DNA of 64,000 bases from Methanobacteriota archaeon (GTDB taxonomy: Archaea > Thermoplasmatota > E2 > DHVEG-1). Below the pieces are notes generated by a model, which saw only the letters and a program-made list of their open reading frames with translations, was not told the origin of the DNA and searched no databases. Positions 3,322 through 30,232 of the stretch are shown piece after piece. The stretch lies in assembly GCA_017885605.1 (NCBI GenBank), contig JAFNFT010000071.1, forward strand, positions 85,519 to 149,518, in the 5' to 3' direction. Both the position numbers and the translations under genes were made by a program. Within the stretch, counting starts at the first letter, position 1. Every line of letters begins with the position of its first letter.

Positions 3322-3351
3322 AAAATGATGTAAAAAAGGTTGTAATAAAGT

Positions 3352-4535: not shown

Positions 4536-4586
4536 AATATGAATAAGAGAAAGATGCAAAAAAATTATTGTTGATGGTGTTGTAAG

Positions 4587-5141
4587 GTGCAGGAAGAAAT
4601 TGTAACTATTGATAAAAAAATGATTGAACTTAAAAATTATGAAAGTGTTTTAATAATTGAGAATGTGAAATCCTTACGGGCAACAGTAAATGAAATTTTA
4701 AAAACTCTTCAAGATAAACCTATTATTTACCTTAATTTAACTACTACATATAATTCATTAGTATCAAATTTAAAAAAGGATGGGCTAAAGATAGATAATA
4801 TTCTATTTATTGACTGCATTACACAGTTAGCTGGAGGTACTGTCAGTGATCAAGAGAATGTTTTATTTATTAAAGAGCCAAATGATTTAACCAGTTTAGG
4901 AATCGCGATCTCTCAATTTTTTGAAAACATACTTGGTGAGAAATGGCTTGTTTTATATGGTTTTAGTATTTTTAAAATTTACAATAAAGAAGATATTGTT
5001 TTAAGGTTCATTCAATCTATTTTTGAAAATGCCTCAATGAATAATGCAAAAATTGTTATTTTATCGACGCAAGTAAAGAATGATAGTCTAATTAAAAAAA
5101 TGGCTCATTTTTTTGAAAAAGTTGTTATGGAAATTGAGTAA
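4587..5141 (+). CDS. DUF835-like protein (paralog 2)
   Basis: Same length class and motifs as 3966 (IYLNLTTTYNSL..., ILFIDCITQLAG, LVLYGFSIF..., KIVILS). Preceded by an SD-like gtaaggtg. More divergent than the others. Confidence 0.4.
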   Translation: MQEEIVTIDKKMIELKNYESVLIIENVKSLRATVNEILKTLQDKPIIYLNLTTTYNSLVSNLKKDGLKIDNILFIDCITQLAGGTVSDQENVLFIKEPNDLTSLGIAISQFFENILGEKWLVLYGFSIFKIYNKEDIVLRFIQSIFENASMNNAKIVILSTQVKNDSLIKKMAHFFEKVVMEIE

Positions 5142-5143
5142 AA

Positions 5144-6574: not shown

Positions 6575-9500
6575 TTGGTGAAGGAGATGCAAAACAAAAA
6601 AAATCTCAATCAATTTTCCCAACAGCATCAGAGTGTTGTTCAAGAAGTTGAACAAATATTACAGGAAAAAAAATACGTCATACCACCTGAAAAACTACTA
6701 TCGCTTGATAATAATTTCCCATCTGCATTCAATGTTTCTTTTACGGGTATAAAAGAGTTTGATCAACTTCTTGATGGCGGATTTACTAAGGGTTCAATTA
6801 TCTTGCTTGCCGGATCATCAGGAAGCGGCAAAACTATCTTTTCCTTCCAATGGCTTTTTGAAGGAATTAAAAACAATGAAAATGGAATCTATATCACTCT
6901 TACAGAACCGCTTTTCAAAACCTTAGAAAATCTTGAAAAACTAAGTTTTTACAATAAAGAAGCTATAGAAAATGAAAAATTGAGAATCGTTGATCTGCGG
7001 AAGATATATGAAAAGGAAGGTTTTGACCAGCAAAAAATCCTCGATTTTATTGAAAACGAGGTCAAACGAACAAATGCAAAACGACTATGCATTGATTCGA
7101 TTACCGCTATCGCGTATCAGCTTGATGATAGGGCCAAGATTAGAGCTTTTATATTTGCTCTAGGTACGACACTTGCAACACTCGGTTGCACAACTGTTTT
7201 AACCAGTGAAGTTTCTGAAATGAATAAATACTCTAAGTACGAAGTCGAGGAATTTATATCTGATGCAATTTTACGATTTGATCAAATTAAAGAAAAAGAC
7301 GAACCACAAAGAATAATACAGATAATCAAAGTGAGAGGGAGAAACCATAGGTCAGATGACATTTATTTCAAAATTACAAAGGATGGCATCACCGTTTTTC
7401 CTAAACTCAGGATTCCGCTTGAACATTTTTCTACGACAGAACGGATCTCGATGGGCATTTCTACGCTGGATGACATGTTAGGCGGAGGTATTTTTGTTGG
7501 TTCTTCTACACTCATAACTGGTTCGCCTGGAACCGGAAAATCTACGTTGGGTTTAAGTTTCCTTGCTGAGGGATTGAAAAATGGGGAGATGTGCCTGTAT
7601 GTTGGATTCGAAGAAAGTAAGAAACAAGTATTAAGAAACGCCAAAAATTTTGGATGGGATTTCGAGAAGTCCGAAAGAAATGGTCTTCTTGTCATGCGAT
7701 GTATTTATCCGAACGAAAAGCATCTTGAAGAACATCTAGCAGATATAAGAAAAATAGTGGAAGAAAAAAAAATTAAAAGATGTGTTGTTGACCCTCTCTC
7801 TGCCATTTCGAGTGCGTTCTCACCGGATGCATTTATAAGTTTTTCAAAACGACTTAATGGATATTTGAAAACTCGTGAGGTGACTCCTTTATTTACATCA
7901 ACCACAAACTCGCTCATAGGCAATACAAAAGATGTAGATTCGCATATTTCTACGATATCAGATAATATTATCTTGTTGCGTTATGTTGAAATGCAAGGTG
8001 ATGTACAGTTTGTAATAAACATTATCAAAATGAGAGGGAGTGAGCATAGCAAAAATCTAAGAATGTACAACATAACAGATAAGGGCTTAGTCGTCGGTAA
8101 AAGTCTCGAAGGTTATGAAGGTGTTACAACTGGTGTCAGTAAAAAAATTGCTGAACTCGAGAAAGAAGGTTTGGAACTTAAGGAAGTTATCAAGCAGAAA
8201 GAAATGGCGGAAAAGGTTCTGCGAGAGAGCGAGGAGAAATTTAGATTATTGTTTAATGACTCTCCTTTAGGTATTGCACTGGTAGATCCAGAAGGAATCA
8301 TTAAAGAAGTAAACAGCAGCTTACTTCAGCTGTTATCAATACGAAAAGAAGAATTTATCGGTAAAAACTTTGTTCAATTAATCTCAGTTTATGGTTTAGA
8401 TGTCCAAGAGCAAACCTCAGATTTCAAAAACAGAATTGCCGGAAAACCATCAAAAAGTGAAATAACATTTTTATCTAAAGACAACAAGAAAGCGACGATG
8501 ACGGTACAGAGTTCGATTATTAAAAGTAACGATGTAATAATTGGTGTTCTCTTCATTTTAGAAGACATCACCGAGCGTAAGCGGGTGGAGGGTATGCTAA
8601 GTGAGACGAATCAATACCTCGAAAACCTATTCAACTATGCAAATGCTCCTATCATCGTCTGGGATGCACAATTCGCAATCACCCGTTTCAATCATGCCTT
8701 CGAATCGTTGACCGGCCGGAGCGTGAAAGATGTTATCGGAAAAACTCTTGAAATTCTCTTTCCCCCAGACCTGGTGGAAAGTTCAATGGAACTAATTCGA
8801 AAAACGCGGGAAGGGAAACAATGGGAGGTGGTCGAGATTGATGTTCTGCATCTCGATGGATCAAGGAGGACCGTCCTCTGGAACTCAGCCAACCTTTTCG
8901 CCCCAGACAGTAAGACTCTCATCGCCACAATTGCGCAAGGTCAAGATATCACCAAACGCAAGCGAGCACTGGACGAATTGAAGGTAGCTAATGAAAAACT
9001 TAATCAAATAAAATCAGATTTTTTCGAAGTGACAACTCGCGAAATAAGATCGCCGTTAACTACAATAAAAGGATATATGGAAATGTTGTCAAATCGAACC
9101 TTTGGTGAAATAAATGATGAGCAAAAAAAATATCTTGATATAATGTTACGGAATACAAATCAGCTTGACAACCTTGTATCAGATCTTGTGGGCATTTCAA
9201 GCATTGAATCAGGGGATATGACTTTTACTTTGAAAAAAACGAGTATTAGTAAGATGGTGAATGAAGCAGTTGAAAAAATACAGTCATCTGCAGATGTAAA
9301 AAACATTGCAGTCAATGTAGAAATAGAGGATCAAATACCTGATTTAATCGTTGACCAAGATCGGATAAAACAAGTCCTTATAGATATACTCGGGTACACA
9401 ATAAAATTCTCACCAGATAAAACTACGGTTAATATGCGCGCAAAAAAACAAGAAACCGATGTTTTATTCGAGATTCAAGACCAAGGATTGAATATACCAA

Positions 9501-9769
9501 AGGATAAACAGAAAAAGATTTTTAAGGCGTTTTACCGAGCTGAAGAAGGTAAAAGTAAAGAATACTTAGGAGGCGGTATTAGACTTGCACTATCACGAGG
9601 TATTATCACCATTCATGGCGGCAAGATGTGGGTAGAAAGCGAGGATGAAAAGGGAAGTACATTTAGATTTACACTGCCAATAAAACCAGTTGATAATATT
9701 CAAACAAGATATAAAGAATCTGACATATTCGAATCAAAAAAAGATGATGAAAACATTGAAATTAATTAA
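6575..9769 (+). CDS. Fusion protein: two KaiC/RecA-like ATPase domains + coiled coil + 2 PAS + HisKA + HATPase_c (KaiC-histidine kinase)
   Basis: Walker A LLAGSSGSGKTIF (domain 1) and LITGSPGTGKSTLG (domain 2), with KaiC-like FDQLLDGGFTKGS and LDDMLGGGIFVGS leaders. EDITERK PAS linkers. H-box TTREIRSPLTTIKGYMEML. G2 region GGGIRLALSRGIITIHGGKMWVESEDEKGSTFRFTLP. Listed start is GTG; ATG at 6587 is more likely. Confidence 0.85.
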   Translation: MVKEMQNKKNLNQFSQQHQSVVQEVEQILQEKKYVIPPEKLLSLDNNFPSAFNVSFTGIKEFDQLLDGGFTKGSIILLAGSSGSGKTIFSFQWLFEGIKNNENGIYITLTEPLFKTLENLEKLSFYNKEAIENEKLRIVDLRKIYEKEGFDQQKILDFIENEVKRTNAKRLCIDSITAIAYQLDDRAKIRAFIFALGTTLATLGCTTVLTSEVSEMNKYSKYEVEEFISDAILRFDQIKEKDEPQRIIQIIKVRGRNHRSDDIYFKITKDGITVFPKLRIPLEHFSTTERISMGISTLDDMLGGGIFVGSSTLITGSPGTGKSTLGLSFLAEGLKNGEMCLYVGFEESKKQVLRNAKNFGWDFEKSERNGLLVMRCIYPNEKHLEEHLADIRKIVEEKKIKRCVVDPLSAISSAFSPDAFISFSKRLNGYLKTREVTPLFTSTTNSLIGNTKDVDSHISTISDNIILLRYVEMQGDVQFVINIIKMRGSEHSKNLRMYNITDKGLVVGKSLEGYEGVTTGVSKKIAELEKEGLELKEVIKQKEMAEKVLRESEEKFRLLFNDSPLGIALVDPEGIIKEVNSSLLQLLSIRKEEFIGKNFVQLISVYGLDVQEQTSDFKNRIAGKPSKSEITFLSKDNKKATMTVQSSIIKSNDVIIGVLFILEDITERKRVEGMLSETNQYLENLFNYANAPIIVWDAQFAITRFNHAFESLTGRSVKDVIGKTLEILFPPDLVESSMELIRKTREGKQWEVVEIDVLHLDGSRRTVLWNSANLFAPDSKTLIATIAQGQDITKRKRALDELKVANEKLNQIKSDFFEVTTREIRSPLTTIKGYMEMLSNRTFGEINDEQKKYLDIMLRNTNQLDNLVSDLVGISSIESGDMTFTLKKTSISKMVNEAVEKIQSSADVKNIAVNVEIEDQIPDLIVDQDRIKQVLIDILGYTIKFSPDKTTVNMRAKKQETDVLFEIQDQGLNIPKDKQKKIFKAFYRAEEGKSKEYLGGGIRLALSRGIITIHGGKMWVESEDEKGSTFRFTLPIKPVDNIQTRYKESDIFESKKDDENIEIN

Positions 9770-9792
9770 AAAAAATTCCAATAAGTGATACC

Positions 9793-10380
9793 ATGTTAAA
9801 AGATGAAACAAAAAAATCTATTGAACAAGCAATACAAATGGACAAACATGGCGTCATAATTATGATAGAACTTCCAATAAATGCTTATTTTGAAATGAAT
9901 TCTTCCACCATTAAAATATTGACAAACCATGGTTTTCAAGGGATATACATTAGCTTTCAGAGACCGTTTAATAACATATCTTCCTTTTTTGAATCTGAGG
10001 GAATAGACACTAATACACTATTATTTATAGATGCTGCAACAGCCCTTTCCGGTGAAAAACAACATGAAGATGCTCGTTGTATACATGTCTCCCAAGAACT
10101 CGATATTGATGAACTGGTAAAAGCCATCTATCTTTCTCTGCCAAAGCTAAAAAGCCAAAAAAAGTTTATTTTTATCGATTCATTAACTACAATATCTCTT
10201 TACAAACCATTATCTCAAATAATGAGATTTTCAGAATTCCTGATGAGGACAGTACGTAAAGAAAACGAGGAAAATGTTATACTCATTTTTAACGTGGCAA
10301 AAGATCTCGCCCAAAAAAAATTTATCAGAGAGGTAGCCTTCCATGTGGACCAAGTAATAAGTGTGGATAATAATGAATGA
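9793..10380 (+). CDS. DUF835-like protein (paralog 3)
   Basis: GIYISFQRPFNNI...LLFIDAATALSG...KFIFIDSLTTISLYKPLSQIMRFSEFLMRTV...VILIFNV: same pattern as 3966. Starts 24 nt after the KaiC-histidine kinase stop. Confidence 0.45.
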   Translation: MLKDETKKSIEQAIQMDKHGVIIMIELPINAYFEMNSSTIKILTNHGFQGIYISFQRPFNNISSFFESEGIDTNTLLFIDAATALSGEKQHEDARCIHVSQELDIDELVKAIYLSLPKLKSQKKFIFIDSLTTISLYKPLSQIMRFSEFLMRTVRKENEENVILIFNVAKDLAQKKFIREVAFHVDQVISVDNNE

Positions 10381-10930
10381 TCTAGAAAAAATTTCTCAAG
10401 AATTAAACAATCTGCCAAAAGGCTGGATTGTAATGCTGGAAACTTCTCCAGAAAAAATGTTAGAGGTTTCTTTGTCAACGATAAAATTTTTATCTGATGA
10501 AAAAAACTACATTGGAATTATCGTATCAGCAAGCAGACCTCAAAAAAATTTGATACAACTCTACCAACAAAAAAAAATCGATATTAAAAAAATTCTCATT
10601 CTCGACTGTATCTCAAAAAGCCAGAGTTTGGACCTGGAGGAAGCGAGCAATGTTATATATCTTGAATCAGTATCTTCTCTTACAAATATTTCACTTGCAA
10701 TAACAGCGAGTATTCAACGAATACCGGGAGATAAATTTGTTTTTATTGACTCTATCAACAGCATGCTTATTCATAACAAACCTGAAGTTTTTGCTCAATT
10801 CATTCATGGGATTTTAACTAAGCTGAGAATTGGCGGGATAAACGGTTTACTTATTTCTCTAGAACATGAAACGAACAAAGAGATACATGCAGAAATTGCA
10901 CAACTGTGCGATCGGATTGTGAAAATATAA
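10361..10930 (+). CDS. DUF835-like protein (paralog 4)
   Basis: KFVFIDSINSMLIHNKPEVFAQFIHGILTKLRIGGINGLLISLEHETNKEIHAEIAQL is the strongest DUF835-type match of the four. Overlaps the upstream paralog by 20 nt and the downstream kaiC by 25 nt. Confidence 0.5.
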   Translation: MWIIMNDLEKISQELNNLPKGWIVMLETSPEKMLEVSLSTIKFLSDEKNYIGIIVSASRPQKNLIQLYQQKKIDIKKILILDCISKSQSLDLEEASNVIYLESVSSLTNISLAITASIQRIPGDKFVFIDSINSMLIHNKPEVFAQFIHGILTKLRIGGINGLLISLEHETNKEIHAEIAQLCDRIVKI

Positions 10931-11853
10931 TGGATGAAAAAAAGAGTAAACAAAGTAATATCTTTGACATGGCTAAAATCAAAGCAGAGATTGAGAATAA
11001 GCTAAAGGGTACTGATGACAAAGGTTATTCCACGGGAGGAACTTTAGAACAAAAAACGCAACAGTTGCATGAAACAAAAAATGAAGCTAAAACGGGAAAA
11101 AAATTTGTTTTAACAGGCGTTTCCGGATTTGATGAACTATTTGAAAATGGCATACCAAAAGGTTCCAATATTCTCGTTGCTGGAGGTGCAGGTTCAGGAA
11201 AAACAATTTTTTGTCTACAAACACTGTGGTACCATATCTTATGTGGGGAAAAATGTTTTTACATGAGTTTTGAAGAATCTGAAAAAAGATTAATGGAACA
11301 TATGGAGGATTTTGGTTGGAATCCAGAAAAACTTCTCGCATCAGGTAACTTTAAAATCAAGAGGTATCTACCGAGCGATATTCATTATGTATCTGAAAAA
11401 GGTAACGATAATGCAATGTTTGCTAAAGAAGAGGACAGTCAACTTTTACAGTTAGAGCCAGTAACTTTGGAAGAAGGATTTAATCCTGATTTTGTTGTCA
11501 TTGATTCACTTACGGCAATTGCCTCGGCATTTATGGGAAAAGAAGGTTCGTACAGGTTTTATGCTGAGCGACTCTTCAGGTTTTTTGAAAATATGGGGAG
11601 TACAAATTATTTTATAACAGAGACCGGACAGATGCCAGAAACTTTTTCACAGACCGGTGTTGAGGAGTTCTTAGCTGATGGGGTGATTGTTTTGTATAAT
11701 ATTAAACGAGAAAATATGCGGGAACGCGCTATAGAGGTTTTGAAAATGCGTGGTACAAAACATCAAGAGAGAATAGTTGCAATGAAAATTTCCGAAAAAG
11801 GTATGGTTGTGTATCCAAAACAGGAGATTTTTGGTGAGATTCACACTAAATAA
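10906..11853 (+). CDS. Single-domain KaiC-like (RecA superfamily) ATPase
   Basis: Walker A VAGGAGSGKTIFCLQ preceded by the KaiC-like GVSGFDELFENGIPKGSNIL. Walker B DFVVIDSLTAIAS. Confidence 0.8.
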   Translation: MRSDCENIMDEKKSKQSNIFDMAKIKAEIENKLKGTDDKGYSTGGTLEQKTQQLHETKNEAKTGKKFVLTGVSGFDELFENGIPKGSNILVAGGAGSGKTIFCLQTLWYHILCGEKCFYMSFEESEKRLMEHMEDFGWNPEKLLASGNFKIKRYLPSDIHYVSEKGNDNAMFAKEEDSQLLQLEPVTLEEGFNPDFVVIDSLTAIASAFMGKEGSYRFYAERLFRFFENMGSTNYFITETGQMPETFSQTGVEEFLADGVIVLYNIKRENMRERAIEVLKMRGTKHQERIVAMKISEKGMVVYPKQEIFGEIHTK

Positions 11854-11946: not shown

Positions 11947-12777
11947 TCAAGAAGCTATCCACGCATCTATTTCTATGATGTTTAGAGCGAGATTAACGGT
12001 GGTGATTCCTAAAAATTCTATAGTTATTTCGCCAGTAGTATCCGTCACTGAAAAATTGGCTCCATAGGTAAGGTTTGCTGATTGTAATGTACTTTTAAAC
12101 GCTTGATGCCAGGCATTTGGATAATTTGTGGTAATTGTAATGTTTTTTATATTGTTCATCAAAGAAGTTTTATTACTAACGAATTCTGTCCGTATCGGAT
12201 AGGTTCCATATCCGCCTGCGGATGTTCTTCCACCAACTCCTGTGATGTTTACAATATCGAGGGTTAGGTTAACAACATTTACGTTTATTATTGCGGAAAA
12301 AGGTTTTATGGACATTACATTTCCTTCAGATTGATTCAATATTACAGATCCAGCCTCATAAATGTAAGATTGATCAAGATAGTATACATTTTTCGATGAA
12401 TATTTTATGATTCCAAGTGAATACGAAGCGGAGTTTGAGATATTTGTGATTGTCACTGTACAATTATTTGATAAAATCAGAAGAGACCCAAACGCTCTAC
12501 TCGCTGAGAAATAAGGTATTTCTTTATTTCCAAGAGTAATAGATGTTGACATTGGTGTTTTTTGCCCAGTTGCAGCTTGTATGTCTATCGCAGATTTTAA
12601 CTGAGAAAACTGATCTGCTACGTCACCCATATGCTCTGCTTCTATCGACCTCATCCATTTTGGCACATACGTGGTTTGTATCAATGAAATAACAATGACA
12701 ATGAGTCCTACAAGTAATATTGCAGTAATAATGCCTGCCACTGCATTATCCGAACACCATCTCTGGTTCACTCTCAT
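11947..12777 (-). CDS. Pilin-like protein with class III signal peptide / N-terminal hydrophobic helix (putative minor pilin), rich in N-x-S/T sequons
   Basis: N-terminus DNAVAGIITAILLVGLIVIVISLIQ, about ten N-x-S/T sequons. Last gene of the minus-strand pilus operon. Confidence 0.45.
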   Translation of the reverse strand: MRVNQRWCSDNAVAGIITAILLVGLIVIVISLIQTTYVPKWMRSIEAEHMGDVADQFSQLKSAIDIQAATGQKTPMSTSITLGNKEIPYFSASRAFGSLLILSNNCTVTITNISNSASYSLGIIKYSSKNVYYLDQSYIYEAGSVILNQSEGNVMSIKPFSAIINVNVVNLTLDIVNITGVGGRTSAGGYGTYPIRTEFVSNKTSLMNNIKNITITTNYPNAWHQAFKSTLQSANLTYGANFSVTDTTGEITIEFLGITTVNLALNIIEIDAWIAS

Positions 12778-12788
12778 CTCAATTCTCC

Positions 12789-14540
12789 TTACGTATGCCT
12801 ACATCTCGAATCAGCACTCGCAGGTGCGCCCTCGACAGTACCAGCATACCTCCCTCTACTGTAAAATTCATAATACACATTCCCATTCGGAAAATCAAAA
12901 CTCCAACTCCATGGATGCGAAGTATCAGGGTTATTCGAATTATTCCAGATTATCCAATTGCTCTGTATCAAAGAATAATTATTTTCCTGCCCCCAAGTTC
13001 CATGAGATGGTTCAGGGGAGACGTGTTTACAGACACGGATATCATCATAATATGAATAACTTCCATAGTGATTCTGTAATGAAATTTCTCCTGCGTTTGA
13101 ATATGCAGAAGAAGGAGGAGTCTCACTACATGTTTTTGTCTTCCCATCACATGTTATTGTAAACGATGAGCCACTTACGGTAATATTGAATGGTTTCCAT
13201 GATCCCGTTCCAACGGCAGTTCCTGTTACTGAACAACCGGTAAAAAACGCCCAAGCGGTATAGGGTGGTCTGAGGTAAGAAAGACCTTCATTGGTTCTTG
13301 CGTCCATTCTAGATTTATACCCGGTGTTACCCGTATAATTTCCTCGCCATCCGACTTCTGCAATGGCATTTGATGAAAGGTATACTTTTCCTTCAATTGT
13401 TCCATTGATGAATCCAGTATAGGTTGCATTTGAACCCAGAACGGTGTGGCCATAAGACCCGCTCGTTGAACCTCCACCACAGACGAGATATCCATTTTCA
13501 ATTCTTGGGTAAACTCCTGAGAGTTTGTGCCTTGTCCATTTACTGAGATCCCCACTAAAATCATCAAAGAAAATGAACGTATTCGTTCCATTACTTTTGT
13601 TCGTAGCAGCACTATTTCCATAATATAACCAGATTGAGCTGCCTGTTGTATTCAAATTGTCAGGTATTTTGACCCAAAAGGTAGCATTACTGCCTGTGTT
13701 TTTCTGTTCTATCCAGTAGTCCAGTTTGGTTGTATTATCAGTATAGCTGATAAATCGTATATCGCCAAAGTCGTTTCGTGCTTTGTTATTGATATAGACA
13801 GTGTCCTCACTATCAGTCCCTGTCCCATTTTTCACAATAATTTTTACTTGGTAATTTGATCCAGCGCCACTTGCGCTTCCTATGTCATGCTTCTTACGGT
13901 ACCCCCAAGAGTTGTTCCACCAATTTTCATTCTCGCCCCATGAAGCATTATCTGCAGAATAACGATACCAGAGCGTTACAATCTCCAATCCTGAATCGCC
14001 AGTAGCATTGACAGTAAGTGGAGAAGATGTTTGATGGTAGGGACTAATTGTATCAACAGAAGTAACAAGTGACGGAATAGTCGTTGTTTCTCCCTCCTGT
14101 AGAACTCCCATCATCATTATAGAATTGCTATCCCTATCAACTACAGTAGCCTCGATTTGCAAACCTGTCATATTCCCAGATAAATTGTAGTGGTAGACGA
14201 GCTGCTCACTAATATCCCATCGATAATTTCCATTAGAATCAATCAATAAATCGTGAACAGTCTTACTAATCCTTGTTCCCCCTACGATAAATGAGACTGT
14301 TGCGTTTTGATCCAGTGAATCTCCACCACGATGTTCTAGTACTATATTACTCCCTTCAATTGATCCGACAATATCTACAGAAGGTACCGACGGAGAAAAT
14401 GGATACGACATAACAATGAAATACAATATGGAGAAAAGTGCTACACCTATCCCTACCATTAAAATAGCGCCAATGACTTCAGAGACAGCACCATCCAGTT
14501 TTTTCCATTTCATTTTCATATCCATTATACCACTCTTCAA
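12789..14540 (-). CDS. Large pilin-like surface protein A: archaeal type IV pilin N-terminal domain + LamG/DUF2341-like beta-sandwich region
   Basis: KWKKLDGAVSEVIGAILMVGIGVALFSILYFIV matches the archaeal pilin N-terminal (class III signal) pattern. IWLYYGNSAATNKSNGTNTFIFFDDFSGDLSKW is typical of DUF2341/LamG. Many N-glycosylation sequons. Paralog of 15033-17282. Confidence 0.65.
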   Translation of the reverse strand: MKSGIMDMKMKWKKLDGAVSEVIGAILMVGIGVALFSILYFIVMSYPFSPSVPSVDIVGSIEGSNIVLEHRGGDSLDQNATVSFIVGGTRISKTVHDLLIDSNGNYRWDISEQLVYHYNLSGNMTGLQIEATVVDRDSNSIMMMGVLQEGETTTIPSLVTSVDTISPYHQTSSPLTVNATGDSGLEIVTLWYRYSADNASWGENENWWNNSWGYRKKHDIGSASGAGSNYQVKIIVKNGTGTDSEDTVYINNKARNDFGDIRFISYTDNTTKLDYWIEQKNTGSNATFWVKIPDNLNTTGSSIWLYYGNSAATNKSNGTNTFIFFDDFSGDLSKWTRHKLSGVYPRIENGYLVCGGGSTSGSYGHTVLGSNATYTGFINGTIEGKVYLSSNAIAEVGWRGNYTGNTGYKSRMDARTNEGLSYLRPPYTAWAFFTGCSVTGTAVGTGSWKPFNITVSGSSFTITCDGKTKTCSETPPSSAYSNAGEISLQNHYGSYSYYDDIRVCKHVSPEPSHGTWGQENNYSLIQSNWIIWNNSNNPDTSHPWSWSFDFPNGNVYYEFYSRGRYAGTVEGAPASADSRCRHT

Positions 14541-15013
14541 AATAAAAATTTGAAAACAAAAAGTGAGATCACACCAAGAACAAAACTGTACCGAAGGCCT
14601 GAAGAAAGTTTACCATCCATCATGAACCCTCCGATCATACCTGCACCAATACCCTGTGTAAAAACAAATGAACTCAATGCGTATTTCAACGCCACGGGAT
14701 CCACTTTATTCATCATGACACCAGCCATTTCAACCGTGCTGCTCTGACTCTTGAAAAATGAGGCGAACAGCGTGTTATTAAGAATCATAATTATTCCGAG
14801 GAACACAAAAAAACTCATGATAATTACAACGGTATAGGTAGCCATTTCCGATTTTCTCTGCTCCTTAATATTATTAATTTGATTGATTTCTTTTGCCGCT
14901 GCTTTAAAAACCTTTGACGTCATCCCCCCCATTCTCAATCCTGTATTTATCGAAACAACTATTCTTTTGACAATAGGAGATCTCATCCGTTCAGCAAAAT
15001 TCTCAAACTTCAT
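13955..15013 (-). repeat. Segmental duplication copy A (pilin 5-prime ~590 bp + tadC 3-prime ~480 bp); copy B at ~16695-17745
   Basis: The pilin N-terminal ~95 codons are essentially identical between 14225-14520 and 16950-17245. The tadC 3-prime 477 bp (14537-15013) is ~90% identical to 17260-17740 by eye. Confidence 0.6.
14537..15013 (-). pseudogene. 5-prime-truncated duplicate of the tadC/flaJ-like gene (C-terminal 158 codons only); may be expressed as a small 3-4 TM protein
   Basis: MKFENFAERMRSPIVKRIVVSINTGLRMGG... aligns residue-for-residue with the last 158 aa of the 586-aa protein at 17260-19020 (KVFENFAERMRSAIIKRIVVSINTGLRMGG...). Confidence 0.5.
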
Positions 15014-15032
15014 TTTTTTTTATCTCGCCTCT

Positions 15033-17282
15033 TTACATTTTTTGGCATCTTGCATCAGCGCTCACGGGTGCGCCCTCGATAGTACCAGCATACCTTCCTA
15101 TACTGTAAAACTCATAATATCCCACCCCTTTGGGAAAGTTAAAACTCCAACTCCATGGACTATTTAAGTCAGGATTAGTATCACCTGTATAAATAATCCA
15201 GTTATGTCCTTCTCCTCCACCTATATATGTTTCTTCAGCTCCAGCTGAGCTATAAGATGGTTCTATTGCAATGCATTTTCTAACAAAAACATCATCAAAA
15301 GAAGCTGTTTCTCCCATGCTTCCTCCATTAAGAGCAAGGTAACCTGGACGACCACTTCTTGGCCATGAATTAAAGGCACCCGGCGTCCCACCAATATTCC
15401 AGACTCTTCCTCTGACATTTGTTCCATCATGATAGATTTCAAACCAATACCATGTTCCAAAAGACCATGCAGTTCGAGTATATGATGTTCCCCAGGCTAC
15501 ATGGTCATCTAAGAATTGTTCTGTCGTCTTGGTAACGAAATCATGAAACACATAATTGTAACTTTCACCATTAGCGGCACTAGTTTTAATGCTTAGACCT
15601 GCCCTTCCATCGGCATCTGTTCCAGCCTCTGGTCTCACTTTTGCTCTAATTGCATAATAATTGGATTGAGGAGCTGATGTTGCAATACATTTCTTAGGGT
15701 CGGCAGTTCCTGTGGATGTCTGTCTCATTATCCCGCCTGTTTCGCTCCAAGTGCCTTGGTATGTAGTCCATTTGCTTGCATCAATAGAATTATCGTCAAA
15801 GTTATCAAAGAAATTAAAGGTGTTAGTTCCATTACTAGCATTTGAAGCAGATGGATTGCCGTAATAGCAATAAATGCTGGTACTGCTATTCAAGCTGTCT
15901 TTTACTTCTACCCATACCTTTGCAAGTCTGTTTGGGGCTGTTCCGGATACATCTTCTACCCAGAAATCAAGCGAGGTTGTACCACTCTTATTAGTAAATC
16001 TTAAGTCTCCACCTATGTTTTTCCCGCTAGGAAAGTTTGATGAGTGTCCACCCAAATTAAAATATGCCCCTGAAACACCAGACGTTTCCCCTATCATTAA
16101 AAGCACTTGATAGTTAGGTCCAGCTCCAGCTTGACCAGTAATGTTAATCTTCTTTCTATAAATCCAATTAGCATCATACCAGTTCTCACTATCCCCCTCA
16201 CCAACTGTAGCATTTACATATATTTGATCAATGTAAACATCATTGCTATTATTTTGTGCATCACAACGGAATTTAATCTTCATATCAGATGGGAACGTAT
16301 AACTCGTTTCATTAATCCAAACAATTTCATAATAAAACTGATCGTTTACAAAATCAGTACCAGCAACAAAAGAAGCTACAGTCTGCCAAATAGCTCCATC
16401 ATAATACTCCACAAAAAAATCATGACCATCGCTCAGACCCTCAGATCGAAACCAGAAACTAATAGTAATACAAGTATAACCCGGTGAATGTACATCCACC
16501 CCATTTGTATGATAAAAAGACGATGCATTACCACCATTACCCTGTATATCTGCAGCTTTGCTTCCCTGATGAGCGTATGTACCACCTGTATAAAGAGAAC
16601 AATTCACTCCACCGTCACTGTAATTACCAAATCCTCCTTCAAAATCATCATATGTCAATGTAGTCCAATCCACGGTCCAATTATCATTACTCCAACGATA
16701 ATAAAGTGTAACGTTATTCAACCCAGGATCACCAATAGCATAAACAGTAAGTGGAGAAGATGTTTGATGGTAGGGACTAATTGTATCAACAGAAGTATCT
16801 AGTGAAGGAATAGTCGTTGTTTTTCCCTCCTGTAGAACTGTCATTATCATTATAGAATTGCTGTCTGTATCAATTACGGTAGCCTCGACTTGCAAATTTG
16901 TCATAGATGAATTGTTGTAGACAAGCTGCTCACCTATATCCCATCGATGATTTCCATTAGTATCATTTAAAAAAAATCCAACTGTATTACTAATCCTTGT
17001 TCCCCCTACGATAAATGAGACTGTTGCGTTTTGATCCAGTGAATCTCCACCACGATGTTCTAGTACTATATTACTCCCTTCAATTGATCCGACAATATCT
17101 ACAGAAGGTACCGACGGAGAAAATGGATACGACATAACAATGAAATACAATATGGAGAAAAGTGCTACACCTATCCCTACCATTAAAATAGCGCCAATGA
17201 CCTCAGAGACAGCACCATCCAGTTTTTTCCACTTTATTTTCACAGCCATCAACCACCCTTCAAAATACAAACTTAAAAACAA
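15033..17282 (-). CDS. Large pilin-like surface protein B (749 aa): type IV pilin N-terminal domain + LamG/DUF2341-like domains with an extra ~170-aa insert
   Basis: N-terminal 180 aa nearly identical to protein A. YCYYGNPSASNASNGTNTFNFFDNFDDNSIDASKWT is DUF2341/LamG-like. Conserved C-terminus YYEFYSIGRYAGTIEGAPVSADARC. Likely true start is MAVKIKWKK (~17249). Confidence 0.65.
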   Translation of the reverse strand: MFLSLYFEGWLMAVKIKWKKLDGAVSEVIGAILMVGIGVALFSILYFIVMSYPFSPSVPSVDIVGSIEGSNIVLEHRGGDSLDQNATVSFIVGGTRISNTVGFFLNDTNGNHRWDIGEQLVYNNSSMTNLQVEATVIDTDSNSIMIMTVLQEGKTTTIPSLDTSVDTISPYHQTSSPLTVYAIGDPGLNNVTLYYRWSNDNWTVDWTTLTYDDFEGGFGNYSDGGVNCSLYTGGTYAHQGSKAADIQGNGGNASSFYHTNGVDVHSPGYTCITISFWFRSEGLSDGHDFFVEYYDGAIWQTVASFVAGTDFVNDQFYYEIVWINETSYTFPSDMKIKFRCDAQNNSNDVYIDQIYVNATVGEGDSENWYDANWIYRKKINITGQAGAGPNYQVLLMIGETSGVSGAYFNLGGHSSNFPSGKNIGGDLRFTNKSGTTSLDFWVEDVSGTAPNRLAKVWVEVKDSLNSSTSIYCYYGNPSASNASNGTNTFNFFDNFDDNSIDASKWTTYQGTWSETGGIMRQTSTGTADPKKCIATSAPQSNYYAIRAKVRPEAGTDADGRAGLSIKTSAANGESYNYVFHDFVTKTTEQFLDDHVAWGTSYTRTAWSFGTWYWFEIYHDGTNVRGRVWNIGGTPGAFNSWPRSGRPGYLALNGGSMGETASFDDVFVRKCIAIEPSYSSAGAEETYIGGGEGHNWIIYTGDTNPDLNSPWSWSFNFPKGVGYYEFYSIGRYAGTIEGAPVSADARCQKM

Positions 17283-19020
17283 AAAGTGAAATCACACCAA
17301 GAACAAAACTGTACCGAAGCCCTGAAGAAAGTTTACCATCCATCATGAACCCCCCAATCATACCGGCACCAATACCTTGAGTAAAAACAAATGAACACAA
17401 CGCGTATTTCAATGCCACCGGATCGACCTTATTCATCATGGCACCAGCCATTTTCACGGTACTACTCTGACTCTTGAAAAATGAGGCGAACAGTGTATTA
17501 TTAAGTATCATAATTATTCCGAGGAACACAAAAAAACTCATGATAATTACAGTGGTATACGTAGACATCTCCGATTTTCTCTGCTCTTCAATATTATTAA
17601 TTTGATTGATTTCTTTTGCTGCTGCGATAAAAACCTTTGATGTCATCCCCCCCATCCTCAATCCGGTATTTATCGAGACAACTATTCTTTTGATGATGGC
17701 GGATCTCATTCGTTCAGCGAAATTCTCAAACACCTTTGTTACGGGAATACTCCAAGATAGCTCAGATTTCATTTTTTGTATTTCAGGGGTCAATCTTCCA
17801 TAACGGCCTTTTGATGAAATTTTTATTGCATCAAAAATGGTCATCCCTGAGGAGATACAGTTTCCCATTTCGACCACAAAATCTGGTAATCTTCGCTCAA
17901 TCTCACGCTGTTTTTGCGCTTGCTTATGACAATAAAAGGTAATAGGCCCTATGAAAACCAGGACGGACAGGAAAAAAACATCAAAAAAGAAGTAGGTGGT
18001 GAAATTCATATATTTGTAATAACTTAATACATAAATAATGCAGTAAAAAGAAAGCAATAAACCTGTTGAAAGAAGCAGAATTAAAATAAATGGTCTGTTT
18101 TTTTTATAAAAATCTTTCACTGAAGGTCTCTTCTTCGAATGAGGGTTTCTTATCTCTTCTATACTTGTTGATCGTATGAGAGCGTAATATCCACCATATG
18201 CTATGGGTAGAACAACGAACGAAAAAATAAACAAAATCTCTATAGTGAAACTTGAGGAACCACCAAAAAAACCCATCACAGAGATAATGATCACAAGAAA
18301 AATCGGAAACGCGACAAGCGTGGTGACAAATGTTTCTGCAAGAACCCCAAGAGTATCCAAGTTTTTCTTCCTTGCTAAAAATTCATCGGCCATGTACTGA
18401 TCTACAATGGTTGAAAGGTAAATATGAAGGTCACTACCTGATTGAATAGTACCGATTATCCCTTGGAGAAACGATTTGAATTTTTTTGAAGGAGTGTTTT
18501 CAAGGGCGTGTTTTAGCGCAGTAATCGTATCAATCCCCATGACATCGAGTTCTATGATGATTTTCTTTGCTTCTTGTTGTACTTCACCATAGATATCGAT
18601 TGTTGCAAAAGATCGAAAGATATCTGCGGGTGAAACACCCGCAATTGCCATGGTGCTGATAAAATTCACCGCATAAGGTAAGAATCTATCGATATTCGCG
18701 GCTCTTTTTTTGATATGAGAGTGCGGGATGTATTGACACATCACCCAGATGCTAAACGGCACAAGTGCAGGCAAAAGAATCGCAAGTAAGAGAGTATTTA
18801 ATGAAGGGAAAAAGAGATACAGGAGTAAAGATGGGATGATGGTGAGTATAAACCCCAGGAGCATTGTCATCAAAAACATCGAGAAGTACTCCTGGTATAA
18901 CATATTGATATCGGCTTGTTTTAATAGTATGTTTTTCTCTTGGAGCCGCTGTTTTGTTTTTATTGAAAAAAATCTATCAAATTTCCAGAGGCAGAAGTTC
19001 GAATATTTTGAGGATTTCAT
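17260..19020 (-). CDS. Type IV pilus / archaellum assembly membrane platform protein (FlaJ/TadC/PilC-like)
   Basis: 586-aa polytopic membrane protein with the typical FlaJ/TadC topology, immediately downstream of the secretion ATPase and overlapping it by 4 nt (ATGA). Confidence 0.7.
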   Translation of the reverse strand: MKSSKYSNFCLWKFDRFFSIKTKQRLQEKNILLKQADINMLYQEYFSMFLMTMLLGFILTIIPSLLLYLFFPSLNTLLLAILLPALVPFSIWVMCQYIPHSHIKKRAANIDRFLPYAVNFISTMAIAGVSPADIFRSFATIDIYGEVQQEAKKIIIELDVMGIDTITALKHALENTPSKKFKSFLQGIIGTIQSGSDLHIYLSTIVDQYMADEFLARKKNLDTLGVLAETFVTTLVAFPIFLVIIISVMGFFGGSSSFTIEILFIFSFVVLPIAYGGYYALIRSTSIEEIRNPHSKKRPSVKDFYKKNRPFILILLLSTGLLLSFYCIIYVLSYYKYMNFTTYFFFDVFFLSVLVFIGPITFYCHKQAQKQREIERRLPDFVVEMGNCISSGMTIFDAIKISSKGRYGRLTPEIQKMKSELSWSIPVTKVFENFAERMRSAIIKRIVVSINTGLRMGGMTSKVFIAAAKEINQINNIEEQRKSEMSTYTTVIIMSFFVFLGIIMILNNTLFASFFKSQSSTVKMAGAMMNKVDPVALKYALCSFVFTQGIGAGMIGGFMMDGKLSSGLRYSFVLGVISLFVFKFVF

Positions 19021-21029
19021 TTAGAACCGCCTTTTGCCTTTTCCAATACAACCTCTGGCTCTCGGCTATAGTCTGCTACAACCTTTCCGACTTCCTTATA
19101 CGAGCGCAGATTATTTTTTCTCATCCATTCCAATACAATAATTCTATTTTTAACCTCTGAAATGAGCTGCGCATCGCTCCATCCTTTCTTACTTTGAGTT
19201 CTATCAAGTAAGATGCTTTTTGCTTCTTTCTTAAAATGATCCTCTGATTCGGAAACCCATGAAAAAGGGATTGAAAAAATTAGTTTGTTCGTACTAGGCT
19301 CCATTTTTATTATTTCGATAACATTGGTGATTCTTCGAGCAGGTTTCCCATTTATCACAGTAGCTTTTAAAAACACGACAAGATTAAGGGAGATAAGAAG
19401 TGCTTTCGGCAAAGAAATAGGGGGATTCTCCAGCCTCTGAACCAACGTATGAATATCACTTGCATGAATTGTTGAATATGAAATATGACCAGTAGCCATC
19501 GCTTGGAAAAGAGCATAGGCTTCTTGCCCACGTATCTCACCTACGATTACAACTTGTGGCCGCTGACGCAGTGCAGCCCTAGTAAGATCAAACATATCAA
19601 TATCTTTACTAGTTTTATGTTCTGCAGATTGAGAAAAACCAGTTCTCGTAGTACTCGCTATCCAGTTCTCATGGGGGAGCATCAGTTCTCTGGTATCCTC
19701 TATGGAAAAAATCTTATATGCAGCAGGTAAAAAAAGTGCAAAAGCATTCAATGTGGATGTCTTCCCAGAAGCAGTACCCCCACAGAAGAGAATAGATGCA
19801 CCATTTTCAATGGCAAGCCAGAAATATGCCGCCATCTCCAATGACATCGTGCCGGTATTAATCAAATCAATTGGAGTGAAGGGATCCTCTCGAAATCTCC
19901 TAATGGTAAATGTTGAAAATGGCGTCACGGTTTTCGCCAACATTACCGATAGCCGAGACCCATCCGCAAGTTTCCCATCGATAATCGGTTCATAAATTGA
20001 GATTTGTTTACCGCAAATCTGAGCCAATTTCACCGCAAAAGAATCCAATTCATCAGGATTTTCAAAGACGATGTTGCTCTTTATCGATTCATATGTTTTA
20101 TGATAAATAAAAATAGGGATATTAGGACCGTCACAAGAAATATCCTCAATACCTTCGTCATGCATCAATATATCGATTTTACCATATCCTGTGAACTCTT
20201 GAAAAATATAGTAAAAGATTTTATCCTTGGAGATTTCGCTGAGTTTAATATGGCCATCAACAATAATTTTTTGTAATGATTCATCCAGCTTTATTGATTT
20301 TTCAACGGTGTTACTTTCGAAAACATCAATAGTGGAACGTAATTCAAACAACTCAAGGAGTTTGTTTTTTATTTCTTGTTCCTCTTTTTCCAGCGAAGGC
20401 TCATGTACCTCATAGACGTAGGTCTTACTATTTTTATCAAACTTGATTACCCGACTTCCAAGACCTTTCCATCCAAAACCTGTTCGTTCGTCGTCTGCCT
20501 TCTCGCTGCTTTTTTTCTGTAACCCTTGTTGATCGTTTGATACAAAATCTTCTGATGCATTTAGAGTTTTTCCCCTTTGTGGTATTGGTAATTCTTTGGT
20601 TTTTTCAGGTGGTTTCATTACTTGTTGTAATTTTTGTGGTGCCATTGATTCTTTTTGAACCCCTGCGTCATCGTTTTCTCCTATCAACCTCGTGCGGAAC
20701 TCTGAGTCATCCGTCTGGTCTATATTTGCATCTCTTGTTTTTATCCCAAGAATATTTTTTAGTTGTCGTTCCACAGAGGCCATAAATTTAAAATTAGGGT
20801 TGTCGGTGGTGGGAATATCTGAAATAACGTTTCCTGATTCAACGGTTTTTTCATTAAAAATATCCTTTGAACATGTAACAAGCTCAAATTCCTGAGGTTT
20901 TTCCTCTATTTTTCCCAGCATTTCCTCTTTTCGAAGTATTTTTATTATCTCAGGTTCGTCCTTCATTGAAACCTCCAAAAAACAACTTTTTGTATTTGGA
21001 GAAAACAGAAATCTTCTTGACAGTATCAA
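19017..21029 (-). CDS. Type IV pilus assembly ATPase (FlaI/TadA/GspE-VirB11 family) with a long acidic N-terminal extension
   Basis: Walker A FCGGTASGKTSTLNAF, Asp box/Walker B RPQVVIVGEIRGQEA, His box ATGHISYSTIHASD. The ~190 aa before the conserved core are low-complexity and acidic. Confidence 0.85.
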   Translation of the reverse strand: MILSRRFLFSPNTKSCFLEVSMKDEPEIIKILRKEEMLGKIEEKPQEFELVTCSKDIFNEKTVESGNVISDIPTTDNPNFKFMASVERQLKNILGIKTRDANIDQTDDSEFRTRLIGENDDAGVQKESMAPQKLQQVMKPPEKTKELPIPQRGKTLNASEDFVSNDQQGLQKKSSEKADDERTGFGWKGLGSRVIKFDKNSKTYVYEVHEPSLEKEEQEIKNKLLELFELRSTIDVFESNTVEKSIKLDESLQKIIVDGHIKLSEISKDKIFYYIFQEFTGYGKIDILMHDEGIEDISCDGPNIPIFIYHKTYESIKSNIVFENPDELDSFAVKLAQICGKQISIYEPIIDGKLADGSRLSVMLAKTVTPFSTFTIRRFREDPFTPIDLINTGTMSLEMAAYFWLAIENGASILFCGGTASGKTSTLNAFALFLPAAYKIFSIEDTRELMLPHENWIASTTRTGFSQSAEHKTSKDIDMFDLTRAALRQRPQVVIVGEIRGQEAYALFQAMATGHISYSTIHASDIHTLVQRLENPPISLPKALLISLNLVVFLKATVINGKPARRITNVIEIIKMEPSTNKLIFSIPFSWVSESEDHFKKEAKSILLDRTQSKKGWSDAQLISEVKNRIIVLEWMRKNNLRSYKEVGKVVADYSREPEVVLEKAKGGSK

Positions 21030-21311: not shown

Positions 21312-22616
21312 TTAAGCATATTTTCTAATTACCAAAATGATAATAACAATTGCTATCCCCAAAAATGTGAAAATAAGGTAATCAAATAAAGGAGATCTCT
21401 GTAAATCTTTACCGGGCGAGGTTGAAATAAAGATGGTGACATATTCTGTCGCTGTATCACTAACACCATCGTTATCAATAACCCTTAGAGATATCTGATA
21501 TGTTCCTCCATGAGAATAATTATGACCAGGATTCCTCACATTCGAAGTTACTCCATCCCCAAAATCCCAACTCCAAGAAACCACTACTCCGTCAGCATCT
21601 AATGATGTATCGGTGAACAATATCGTATCATTAATCTTTGGAAGAAACGGTGAAAAAAACGTAAACATAGCGGTAGGCCCCACATTTAACGCGGATATCT
21701 TCCGAGAAACCTGATTTACTGCTTGATCATCATCAACAATACTCAAAGTCACAATATACGATCCATTATCAACATACTGATGTGTCACATTCTGCAATGT
21801 AGACGTATTTCCATCACCGAAATCCCAAAACCATGAAACAATATGGCCATCGAAATCTGTCGACGTATCATTAAAAGTCACGATTTGTAGATCAGTAGGA
21901 ATAAGGGGAGAAAAACTAAAATGAGCAACAGGCGGTACCGTAAACGGTTTCATCAACGGATGCATATCAAAACTACCAGCACCAGCAATACGATAGGAGG
22001 TATCACCAAATCCATCCCTATCACCATCCACACCGGTATAATCATCCCAATAGTTTCCACCGTGGAGATAACCAGCATCCCAGGAGTTCCTCCCCAGATC
22101 ATACGCATTCTGCGTATTATTCAAAAAATTATTATTATAGATAACGTTGTTAAAAACACTTCCTAAAAACATACCGTACTCTGCATCTCGAAAAGTGTTT
22201 TCCGTAATAATACTACCAGACGAATTATATATTCTAATACCACAGGTACCATTTTTGATTGTACAACCACATATCGTCACATTATCAGCAGAAATATTTA
22301 CAACATCTTTAGTTCCACAGCCATCAATAATCACATTTCCTTTACCAGTACGATTTACATTGATAGTTTTATTGATAACTATATTTCCACGATAGATCCC
22401 TGCAAAAACATATACAGTACCGTTTTCCGTTACCGCATCAATACCATCTTGAATAAACTGAAATGGATGACCAGATGAACCATCCCAAGGACCCACAGTA
22501 TTGTTACCATTAACAAAAATAGGAGACCCCGCGGCATGTACCGTATCAAATAGAAAAACAAATACAAATGAAAATACCATTAAAAAAACTACGAAGTATA
22601 CCAACTTTTTTTGCAT
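21312..22616 (-). CDS. Cell-surface protein: signal peptide, right-handed parallel beta-helix region, two PKD domains, C-terminal TM anchor
   Basis: N-terminal MQKKLVYFVVFLMVFSFVFVFLF...VHAAG. Beta-helix-like repeats NVTICGCTIKNGTCGIRIYNSSGSIITENTF. Two WxWDFGDG PKD motifs (SWFWDFGDGNTS, SWSWDFGDGVTS). C-terminal LIFTFLGIAIVIIILVIRKYA. Confidence 0.75.
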   Translation of the reverse strand: MQKKLVYFVVFLMVFSFVFVFLFDTVHAAGSPIFVNGNNTVGPWDGSSGHPFQFIQDGIDAVTENGTVYVFAGIYRGNIVINKTINVNRTGKGNVIIDGCGTKDVVNISADNVTICGCTIKNGTCGIRIYNSSGSIITENTFRDAEYGMFLGSVFNNVIYNNNFLNNTQNAYDLGRNSWDAGYLHGGNYWDDYTGVDGDRDGFGDTSYRIAGAGSFDMHPLMKPFTVPPVAHFSFSPLIPTDLQIVTFNDTSTDFDGHIVSWFWDFGDGNTSTLQNVTHQYVDNGSYIVTLSIVDDDQAVNQVSRKISALNVGPTAMFTFFSPFLPKINDTILFTDTSLDADGVVVSWSWDFGDGVTSNVRNPGHNYSHGGTYQISLRVIDNDGVSDTATEYVTIFISTSPGKDLQRSPLFDYLIFTFLGIAIVIIILVIRKYA

Positions 22617-24706: not shown

Positions 24707-24758
24707 ATTACCACCATATTCGTGAGTATTTTTTCTCTAAAGTATGAAGAATGGACTC

Positions 24759-29906: not shown

Positions 29907-30175
29907 AAAAAACCTCTCTAATATTTTAAAGGGTTTTCTCCTAAAATTGTAGCATCCACCTCAACGTCACAAAACAGCATCATTTCGTAACCCCTCATTT
30001 CCTTTTTCCCGCCACAATTAAATTACGCAAACATTACAATATAATACTTCTTTCTTATTTAACTTTAATGGACGAATCAAAAAAGTAAAAACAAAAAAAT
30101 CATCAGATGATCCTTATCTGATATGCAACAAAGTTGAATCAGGACGATATTTGGAGGAAGCAGCAATGTCTGGAC

Positions 30176-30232
30176 TGAATCATAAAACGATATTTTCAAT
30201 CAATCTCTTTCACCTTAGAGATGATTCGATAC
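30176..30232 (+). repeat. Copy A of a ~57-bp imperfect direct repeat flanking the MEDS-histidine kinase gene
   Basis: atcataaaacgatattttcaatcaatctctttcaccttagagatgattcgatac versus 31936-31995 atcataaaaacgatattttcaaaccatccttttcaccctagagatggtatctggtatc. The atctct/agagat inverted repeat is internal. About 45 of 55 positions match. Confidence 0.45.

Follow-up and report, generated by a model that had tools for sequence, protein, structure and literature searches.

A type IV pilus (T4P)-like operon was analyzed in a stretch of 64,000 nucleotides from an uncultured Thermoplasmata archaeon (contig JAFNFT010000071.1 of assembly GCA_017885605.1, positions 85,519 to 149,518); this whole stretch is called the window below. 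Two large proteins encoded in the operon appear to be glycosylated, adhesin-carrying modular pilins of the "System 2" kind, probably located at the pilus tip, in each of which a pilin module is joined to additional domains (the cargo). In this reading, the major pilin and the prepilin peptidase would be supplied in trans, the cargo would be replaced by recombination, and a neighboring KaiC/histidine-kinase module would act as the regulator. We hold the reading as a whole to be probable, with considerable room left for error. A design of this kind is established among the modular pilins of bacteria, and it has also been foreseen for the pilus loci of euryarchaea; the present locus extends those predictions. 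The initial annotation of the window overlooked a platform gene fragment and the duplication that contains it, the scaffold and cargo modules of the large proteins, the exchange of cargo, and the KaiC module.

Operon and assembly machinery

Six close-packed open reading frames (ORFs) lie on the minus strand at 11947-21029, and those named in the initial annotation are all where it had placed them. They are regarded as one operon, since the intergenic spacing is -4 to 23 nt across the set. From the first gene to the last, they are as follows.

19017..20966, minus strand: PilB/FlaI-type secretion ATPase (Pfam T2SSE, 2e-29); the ORF runs to 21029 (670 aa)
17260..19020, minus strand: TadC/PilC/ArlJ-type membrane platform protein, 586 aa, a single gene (Pfam T2SSF in two stretches, 4e-28)
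15033..17249, minus strand: putative modular pilin 1, probably 738 aa (ORF of 749 aa; Pfam Pilin_N, 6.5e-11, and DUF2341, 1.4e-20)
14537..15013, minus strand: intact 158-aa ORF, a duplicate of the platform protein over its C-terminal 158 residues (Pfam T2SSF, 7.6e-6)
12789..14525, minus strand: putative modular pilin 2, ~578 aa (ORF of 583 aa, reaching 14540; Pfam Pilin_N, 3.4e-11, and DUF2341, 1.2e-23)
11947..12777, minus strand: DUF7289 pilin-like protein, 276 aa, the last gene of the operon (Pfam DUF7289, 1.5e-10)

The lengths of the homologues should be noted, since they give the probable start positions. Homologues of the ATPase are 649 aa long, which places its start at 20966, and the starts of pilins 1 and 2 were taken in the same way (17249 for 738 aa and ~14525 for ~578 aa, respectively); the database holds a protein 100% identical to the 738-aa pilin. 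The ORFs reported at first are found as such, whereas the products indicated by the homologues are shorter.

The ATPase has a poorly conserved N-terminal extension of ~200 aa, the core starting from about residue 200 of 649-670, and the Walker A, Asp box, Walker B, and His box motifs are all found. Its nearest relative of known structure is A. fulgidus GspE (2OAP, 2.7e-108), followed by Sulfolobus FlaI (3.5e-72). The score on the NCBIfam FlaI model is 360 bits, below the cutoff of 550, and the orthologous ATPase in one of the related loci described later (L008) gives a weak PilB3_C match. The ATPase and platform genes share an overlap of 4 nt. The platform protein scores 107 on the ArlJ model, against a cutoff of 550, and is likewise far under the cutoff of the UpsF model.

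The archaellum and the present locus share a homologous ATPase and platform protein, class III-signal subunits, and a nearby ATPase of the KaiC superfamily, to which ArlH belongs. However, Pfam and NCBIfam profile searches of the ORFs of at least 120 aa in the window gave no archaellum family above cutoff. The ArlI, ArlJ, and ArlH models all score below it, and no archaellin, ArlF, ArlG, ArlC, ArlD, ArlE, or ArlX was found in the window. Nor do archaellum genes occur within ~10 kb in five related loci. An archaellum was rejected on these scores and on the absence of the accessory genes, and the T2SSE, T2SSF, and Pilin_N matches bear out the initial description of a non-archaellum type IV pilus-like locus. 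The accompanying statement that flaH is missing needs a qualification. The neighboring KaiC-family protein gives only 55-57 bits on the FlaH/ArlH models (cutoffs 194-215) and is no ArlH equivalog, but a KaiC-family ATPase does lie 94 nt past the 3' end of the operon.

By gene content and published description, the locus fits a T4P of the euryarchaeal clade 2, or System 2, kind, to which the Haloferax PilB3C3-type loci belong (PMC4858521; 10.64898/2026.04.22.720090). System 2 loci have been described as encoding large adhesin-like proteins along with one platform protein and an N-extended ATPase, and an association of KaiC with clade 2 T4P loci has been reported (Makarova 2016, PMC4858521). The class III signal peptidase and the pilins of this clade are often encoded in trans. 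The present locus shares with System 2 the N-extended ATPase, one platform gene, several class III-signal proteins, large adhesin-like proteins, and KaiC-family ATPases. It differs in that the adhesin domains are fused directly to pilin modules, in that the KaiC partner is a fixed four-gene module including a KaiC-PAS-histidine-kinase fusion, in that no MinD/FleN gene is seen at the locus, and in its host, an uncultured member of Thermoplasmata.

Architecture of the large pilins

Both large proteins have archaeal pilin N-termini, as the initial annotation had recognized. The Pilin_N matches begin at profile position 2 in both, and the motifs KWKKLDGAVSEVIGAILMVGIGVA and YYGN...FFD.F are also found in both. 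The N-terminal logo of the family consists of a K/R-rich leader (median 12 aa), then A/G-VSE[VI][IVL]G, and then a hydrophobic helix; this arrangement of leader, core, and helix corresponds to the class III signal of archaea as modeled in Pfam Pilin_N. Each of the three pilin-like proteins, including the DUF7289 protein, has a short basic leader and one strongly hydrophobic N-terminal segment, with no further transmembrane segment.

An exhaustive HMMER search with residues 1-150 as the query gave 899 cluster representatives at E <= 1e-3. The pilin module is N-terminal in all of the 150 best representatives, 49 of which are free-standing proteins shorter than 200 aa (137-190 aa), while the remaining two thirds or so carry extensions to a total length of up to 1,444 aa. 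Since the same module stands alone in 49 of 150, the first ~145 aa of each large protein are an ordinary pilin module. The size of these pilins had been taken at first to suggest a thick adhesive fiber or a sheath; with a pilin module of normal size at the N-terminus, that argument is not supported.

By the definition of Raynaud et al. (2021), a modular pilin joins a pilin module at the N-terminus to another module that has no specific tie to T4P biology. In the present proteins, the pilin module (aa 1-145) is followed by a jelly roll resembling a carbohydrate-binding module (CBM), DUF2341, and a ConA-clan domain. The modules of pilin 1, all on the minus strand, are as follows.

aa 1-145 (16815-17249): pilin module
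aa 146-194 (16668-16814): N-terminal half of the scaffold
aa 195-348 (16206-16667): "mid" jelly roll
aa 349-470 (15840-16205): DUF2341
aa 471-665 (15255-15839): ConA/LamG-like region
aa 675-738 (15036-15227): C-terminal half of the scaffold

The AlphaFold2 model of the 738-aa pilin has a mean predicted local distance difference test score (pLDDT) of 78.5. A helix (residues 12-39) and a beta-sandwich (50-141) together form the pilin module. They are followed by a small beta unit (153-201), a confident jelly roll (205-350), DUF2341 (~360-470), a poorly modeled beta domain (~480-660), and another small beta unit (690-738). The model was compared with the PDB by Foldseek, and the matches include CBM16, CBM22, CBM66, a porphyran-binding CBM, a legume lectin, and reelin repeats, with single-domain template modeling scores of up to 0.6-0.69; these lectin and CBM matches are not assignable to a specific region. 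By sequence, neither the 738-aa nor the 276-aa protein gave anything useful against the PDB.

Pilin 2 is nearly identical to pilin 1 over the first ~200 aa and 35% identical over the rest. It has the pilin module and the scaffold ends of pilin 1, and its cargo consists of DUF2341 and a ConA-clan domain, the latter matching PF06439 at aa ~321-517 (9e-7, 29.5 bits against a cutoff of 26.8). The region after DUF2341 in the 738-aa pilin has no Pfam match; it is likened to this domain through its 35% identity to the paralogue, and it is modeled with low confidence. Laminin_G_3 is found in two homologues (P0030 and P0032) and in other related proteins. The DUF2341/LamG-like domains proposed at first are thus present as DUF2341 in both proteins and as PF06439 in the 583-aa ORF, while the LamG name itself has no Pfam call. 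Structure prediction, likewise, gave CBM and lectin fold matches but left the LamG-like region at low confidence.

The positions of the two small beta units should be noted, since they appear to delimit the cargo. We placed the six modules of the 738-aa pilin on 120 homologues, and the blocks corresponding to residues 146-194 and 675-738 nearly always co-occur, flanking variable sequence. The flanked sequence is "mid" alone in proteins of ~411 aa, DUF2341 plus a ConA-like domain in others, and unrelated sequence in proteins of ~710 aa. This co-occurrence suggests a conserved two-part scaffold with the cargo nested inside. Pfam searches at E <= 5 found nothing on the isolated "mid" module, on either scaffold half, or on the halves concatenated.

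The "mid" module (aa 195-348, ~150 aa) is 55-61% identical to tandem repeats of secreted bacterial subtilase/PKD proteins with sorting tails of the type IX secretion system, one of which is named Krumholzibacteriota. This similarity points to exchange of binding modules between archaea and bacteria.

Density of N-x-S/T sequons is high in all three pilin-like proteins, as had been claimed. It amounts to 2.3-3.3 per 100 aa, compared with 0-1 in cytoplasmic proteins of the window, and is about twice that of composition-matched shuffles (z 2.4-3.4). Heavy N-glycosylation of these pilins is predicted from the sequons. Two other proteins of the window show a sequon excess equal to or above that of the pilins: a NosD/PKD protein encoded upstream of the operon (3.5 per 100 aa, z 4.9) and a membrane protein with DUF1616 encoded at 34347-35327 on the minus strand (2.8 per 100 aa, z 5.5). 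Such enrichment might thus be a common trait of this organism's surface proteins.

The architecture resembles that of bacterial modular pilins, which have been characterized experimentally; PilB (vWA) and PilC (ConA-like lectin) of S. sanguinis have been modeled at the pilus tip (PMC8179133, PMC9934059). A small N-terminal class III-signal pilin module bearing bulky binding modules is shared with S. sanguinis PilB and PilC, CofB, and TcpB, the binding modules of PilC being Ig-like and ConA-type lectin domains. The bacterial loci also encode, like the present one, several modular pilins plus a small non-modular minor pilin. The differences are that the family here is archaeal Pilin_N/DUF1628 and not IPR012902, that DUF2341 is present, that the cargo seems to be nested between scaffold halves and not simply appended, and that heavy N-glycosylation is predicted.

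DUF2341 itself links the locus to other archaeal pili. A role as PilY-like tip adhesins was predicted in 2016 for large DUF2341 proteins encoded in archaeal T4P loci. For the present locus, the link to PilY is a literature analogy through DUF2341 alone, and no operon protein has a Pfam match to the C-terminal beta-propeller domain of PilY1. MJ1470-type DUF2341 proteins of the Methanococcus/Thermococcus clade 1 (Epd) loci are, like those studied here, large DUF2341 proteins encoded inside archaeal T4P operons. Clade 1 loci, however, encode TadC twice, along with numerous minor pilins and a peptidase of their own, EppA, in contrast to the one platform gene plus fragment and the lack of a peptidase here. 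A DUF2341 gene lies in the epd pilus region of M. maripaludis, where transposon insertions impaired natural transformation. That phenotype could be taken to mean that the DUF2341 proteins serve a pilus for DNA uptake or cell-cell contact and not adhesion to glycans. Other pilus genes give the same phenotype, however, which may only reflect lost piliation. The operon contains no DNA-binding or competence gene by Pfam and NCBIfam, and the cargo folds match carbohydrate-binding modules. We regard such a role as very improbable.

The carbohydrate-binding type of the cargo folds is also compatible with a bindosome-like system, that is, a short pseudopilus or surface array of class III-signal binding proteins that would capture glycans or other substrates near the membrane. 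Class III-signal binding proteins on type IV filament machineries have been proposed to be widespread in archaea, and the ATPase and the platform protein do match the BasE and BasF models. Both matches, however, are under the cutoff by a wide distance (210 bits against 1000 for BasE and 34 against 1300 for BasF). Neither a solute-binding-protein domain in the window pilins nor an adjacent ABC importer was found, the sole ABC system of the window being a Wzt/ABC-2 glycan exporter ~40 kb away, and a bindosome was rejected as the primary reading on these two absences. The complete globular pilin module and the conserved DUF7289 partner suggest incorporation into a filament. A bindosome-like role is thus quite unlikely in our estimation.

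Cargo mosaicism among related loci

The cassette recurs in metagenome-assembled genomes of uncultured Thermoplasmata/Thermoplasmatota and in metagenomes. It starts with a surface protein gene and continues with those of the ATPase and the platform protein; then come between one and three Pilin_N genes, DUF7289, and finally a convergent KaiC module. The surface protein at the head is of the NosD/PKD or C25/PKD type in the window, L002, L006, and L007. Small pilins (139-145 aa) adjoin the large ones in L007 and in L015/L016, and DUF7289 lies between the small and large pilin genes in the latter.

A scan of the genome collection with the N-terminal 203 aa of the pilin gave only three close loci. 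Comparison of L001, L002, and L006 with the window is summarized below as amino acid identities.

L002 and L006: machinery (ATPase, platform, DUF7289, 315-aa KaiC, and NosD/PKD), 82-95%; pilin N-terminal end, 74-82%; pilin C-terminal end, 74-76%; cargo, no detectable similarity
L001: machinery, 55-77%; pilin N-terminal end, 57%; pilin C-terminal end, 67%; cargo, 80% over 318 aa

The history of the cargo is decoupled from that of the machinery, which points to exchange by recombination. Some related loci have other arrangements. In L018 (225-1813) and L019 (200-1788), a pilin module (176 aa) and a cargo (353 aa, an FN3-like region plus Laminin_G_3) are encoded by separate genes overlapping by 4 nt, so that a modular pilin is split there or a frameshift is present. 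In L002, a contig of 712 kb, the interval between the two large pilins (12237-14621) contains extra genes, for a protein of 258 aa, a Pilin_N protein of 95 aa, and a CLIPPER/vWA-like protein of 412 aa, and the last of these recalls the vWA modular pilin of S. sanguinis.

Within the window, the two pilin genes share a segmental duplication at their 5' ends. Copy A (13961..15008) and copy B (16694-17731) are 89.4% identical over 1,048 nt, covering the 3' end of the platform gene and the first ~185-190 pilin codons. A second block is located at the 3' ends of the pilin genes (12802-12915 and 15046-15159, 84% over 114 nt). The ~1 kb between these ends shows just 35% identity at the protein level. 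Genes with 100% identity to the DUF7289 gene are found in three independent metagenome assemblies (L009, L011, and L012), and in each the contig ends inside the adjacent large pilin gene; such breaks fit a failure of assembly, since the region is duplicated or variable.

The 158-aa platform fragment, which belongs to this duplication, sits between the two large pilin genes. It is ~89% identical to 17260-17736 at the nucleotide level, and its codon changes relative to the parent gene are synonymous in 32 cases and non-synonymous in 12. The same ORF is present in metagenome locus L014. The synonymous excess and the recurrence in L014 suggest that the fragment is under selection or is kept alike by gene conversion; it may be a functional half-platform, or gene conversion may hold the similarity. 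A dead pseudogene was also considered and is not asserted, the substitutions being mostly synonymous.

The DUF7289 gene is present in every related cassette examined, and its product is 83-95% conserved in close relatives, far above the large pilins. The predicted structure (pLDDT 84.8, predicted template modeling score 0.75) consists of an N-terminal helix of 65 residues and, after it, a globular part rich in beta structure. These features make the DUF7289 protein a candidate minor pilin, pilin-like in layout only, since Foldseek gives no significant PDB match.

From these observations, the following mode of action is proposed. The ATPase and the single platform protein would extract the processed class III-signal proteins from the membrane and polymerize them. 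The ~145-aa pilin module of each large protein, an N-terminal helix plus a beta-sandwich, would slot into the filament and bear the glycosylated cargo (CBM-like jelly roll, DUF2341, and ConA/LamG-type lectin domain) outward on the two-part beta scaffold. The large pilins, low in copy number, would most likely sit with the DUF7289 protein at the pilus tip or close to it, and would there mediate adhesion to glycans or glycosylated surfaces. The bulk small pilin and the prepilin peptidase would have their genes at other sites of the genome. With their conserved 5' and 3' ends, the pilin genes would allow the cargo to be replaced by recombination, and close relatives would consequently display different adhesins. 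The adjacent KaiC/PAS-histidine-kinase module would control assembly or expression.

The low copy number and the probable tip position of the large pilins are proposed because small pilins adjoin large ones in L007 and L015/L016 and because of the bacterial modular pilins. Alternatively, the large pilins might be the main or only filament subunits, giving a thick, glycosylated, lectin-coated "bottle-brush" fiber. A small pilin gene is absent from the operon of the window and from L006 and L008, and the close relatives of the pilin module are all large. In L015/L016, a 145-aa pilin gene directly follows the platform gene, the slot taken by a large pilin in the window, which suggests that this slot belongs to a filament subunit. 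Our rough volume estimate also suggests that ~65 kDa of cargo per subunit could fit a fiber ~16 nm wide. Against such a fiber, two or three unlike large pilins per locus with unrelated cargo and fast turnover are typical of accessory adhesins and not of a structural repeat, and related cassettes contain both sizes of pilin from one family. Characterized modular pilins clash sterically when modeled in the filament body, and the use of pilins encoded in trans is known from System 2 machineries of euryarchaea. We consider it unlikely that the large pilins build the filament.

Several points weigh against the preferred reading, in which the large pilins are adhesin carriers at the tip of a filament made of another pilin. 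The tip location is only probable, by analogy with bacteria. A separate major pilin is assumed, the operon having no small pilin gene; a six-frame motif scan of the window for DUF1628-type N-termini returned only the two known genes, and every relative at least 75% identical in the pilin module is at least 412 aa long. No prepilin peptidase was found among the ORFs of at least 120 aa in the window, in agreement with the initial annotation, or among the called genes of the related loci, and class III processing is a prediction. As to the domains, neither window pilin has a Pfam LamG call, the LamG-like region of the 738-aa model is of low confidence (pLDDT 35-65 at aa ~545-600), and the DUF7289 model lacks a PDB counterpart as described above. 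The placement in clade 2, finally, is by gene content and the best PDB match (2OAP), and not by a tree of the ATPase.

A bolder view of the same observations is a cargo-swapping display, in which the pilin module and the split scaffold would serve as a carrier, the gene ends as recombination handles, and the modules would be traded among paralogues, lineages, and even bacteria; in its strongest form, the large pilins would also be the filament subunits of a lectin-coated fiber. We find this doubtful, though with a real minority chance of being right.

KaiC module, surrounding genes, and implications

The gene set that converges on the operon was identified by Pfam and NCBIfam as follows.

6575..11853, plus strand: four-gene KaiC module, consisting of a 1064-aa KaiC-KaiC-PAS-PAS-HisKA-HATPase protein, two ~190-aa KaiC-like proteins, and a 315-aa single-domain KaiC

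In all the related loci examined, the operon is flanked by KaiC-family genes, which are located beyond DUF7289 in L001, L002, and L006-L014. The full four-gene set, convergent after DUF7289, is found in the window, L002, L007, L008, and L009-L012, whereas in L001, L006, L013, and L014 the set is partial or the KaiC-PAS-kinase is on the other side of the operon. This synteny suggests that the KaiC/PAS-histidine-kinase module probably regulates pilus assembly or expression. A partial paralogous KaiC set is located just upstream (3966-6337, plus strand), with DUF7504, DUF7090, and a 397-aa HhH protein.

Upstream of the operon, on the same strand, lies the gene of the surface protein mentioned above.

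21312..22616, minus strand: sequon-rich surface protein, 434 aa, with a Sec signal, a NosD-type beta-helix, two PKD domains, and a C-terminal transmembrane anchor (Pfam)

A gene 82-88% identical occupies the same place in L002 and L006, and a C25/PKD protein replaces it in L007.

Farther away, a long one-strand cluster for glycan biosynthesis and export extends over ~36800-64000 on the plus strand. It encodes a GT2 and about eight GT4-type glycosyltransferases, a UDP-GlcNAc 2-epimerase, three NAD epimerase/dehydratases, two PIG-L deacetylases, WbqC, a B12-radical SAM protein, a hexapeptide acyltransferase, an FkbM methyltransferase, and the ABC-2/Wzt exporter. The cluster may supply glycans for the sequon-rich surface proteins. 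Sensor kinases are densely encoded at 23006-31848, namely histidine kinases of 566 aa (HAMP) and 463 aa (MEDS domain) and a 1,715-aa ORF with many PAS-like repeats and a histidine-kinase core, as judged from its translation; more PAS kinases and receiver proteins are encoded at 1354-3795 and 32116-32505. The window contains no tRNA genes.

Current views are not overturned by these results. The features of note are the apparently nested, swappable cargo, the binding module that secreted bacterial proteases also carry, and the fixed KaiC-kinase partner. Approximately two thirds of the 150 best representatives carry extensions, suggesting that the bacterial "modular pilin" strategy is very common in one archaeal pilin family. 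The fixed KaiC/PAS-kinase partner might prove to be the regulator of pilus assembly that has long been sought in archaea, and the cargo-swapping display, if true, would amount to a rapidly reprogrammable adhesin repertoire under a dedicated KaiC/histidine-kinase module. Sediments and other anoxic habitats abound in uncultured Thermoplasmata. The locus is a concrete candidate for how these archaea attach to particles or partner cells, through a pilus that would present interchangeable modules of the carbohydrate-binding type.

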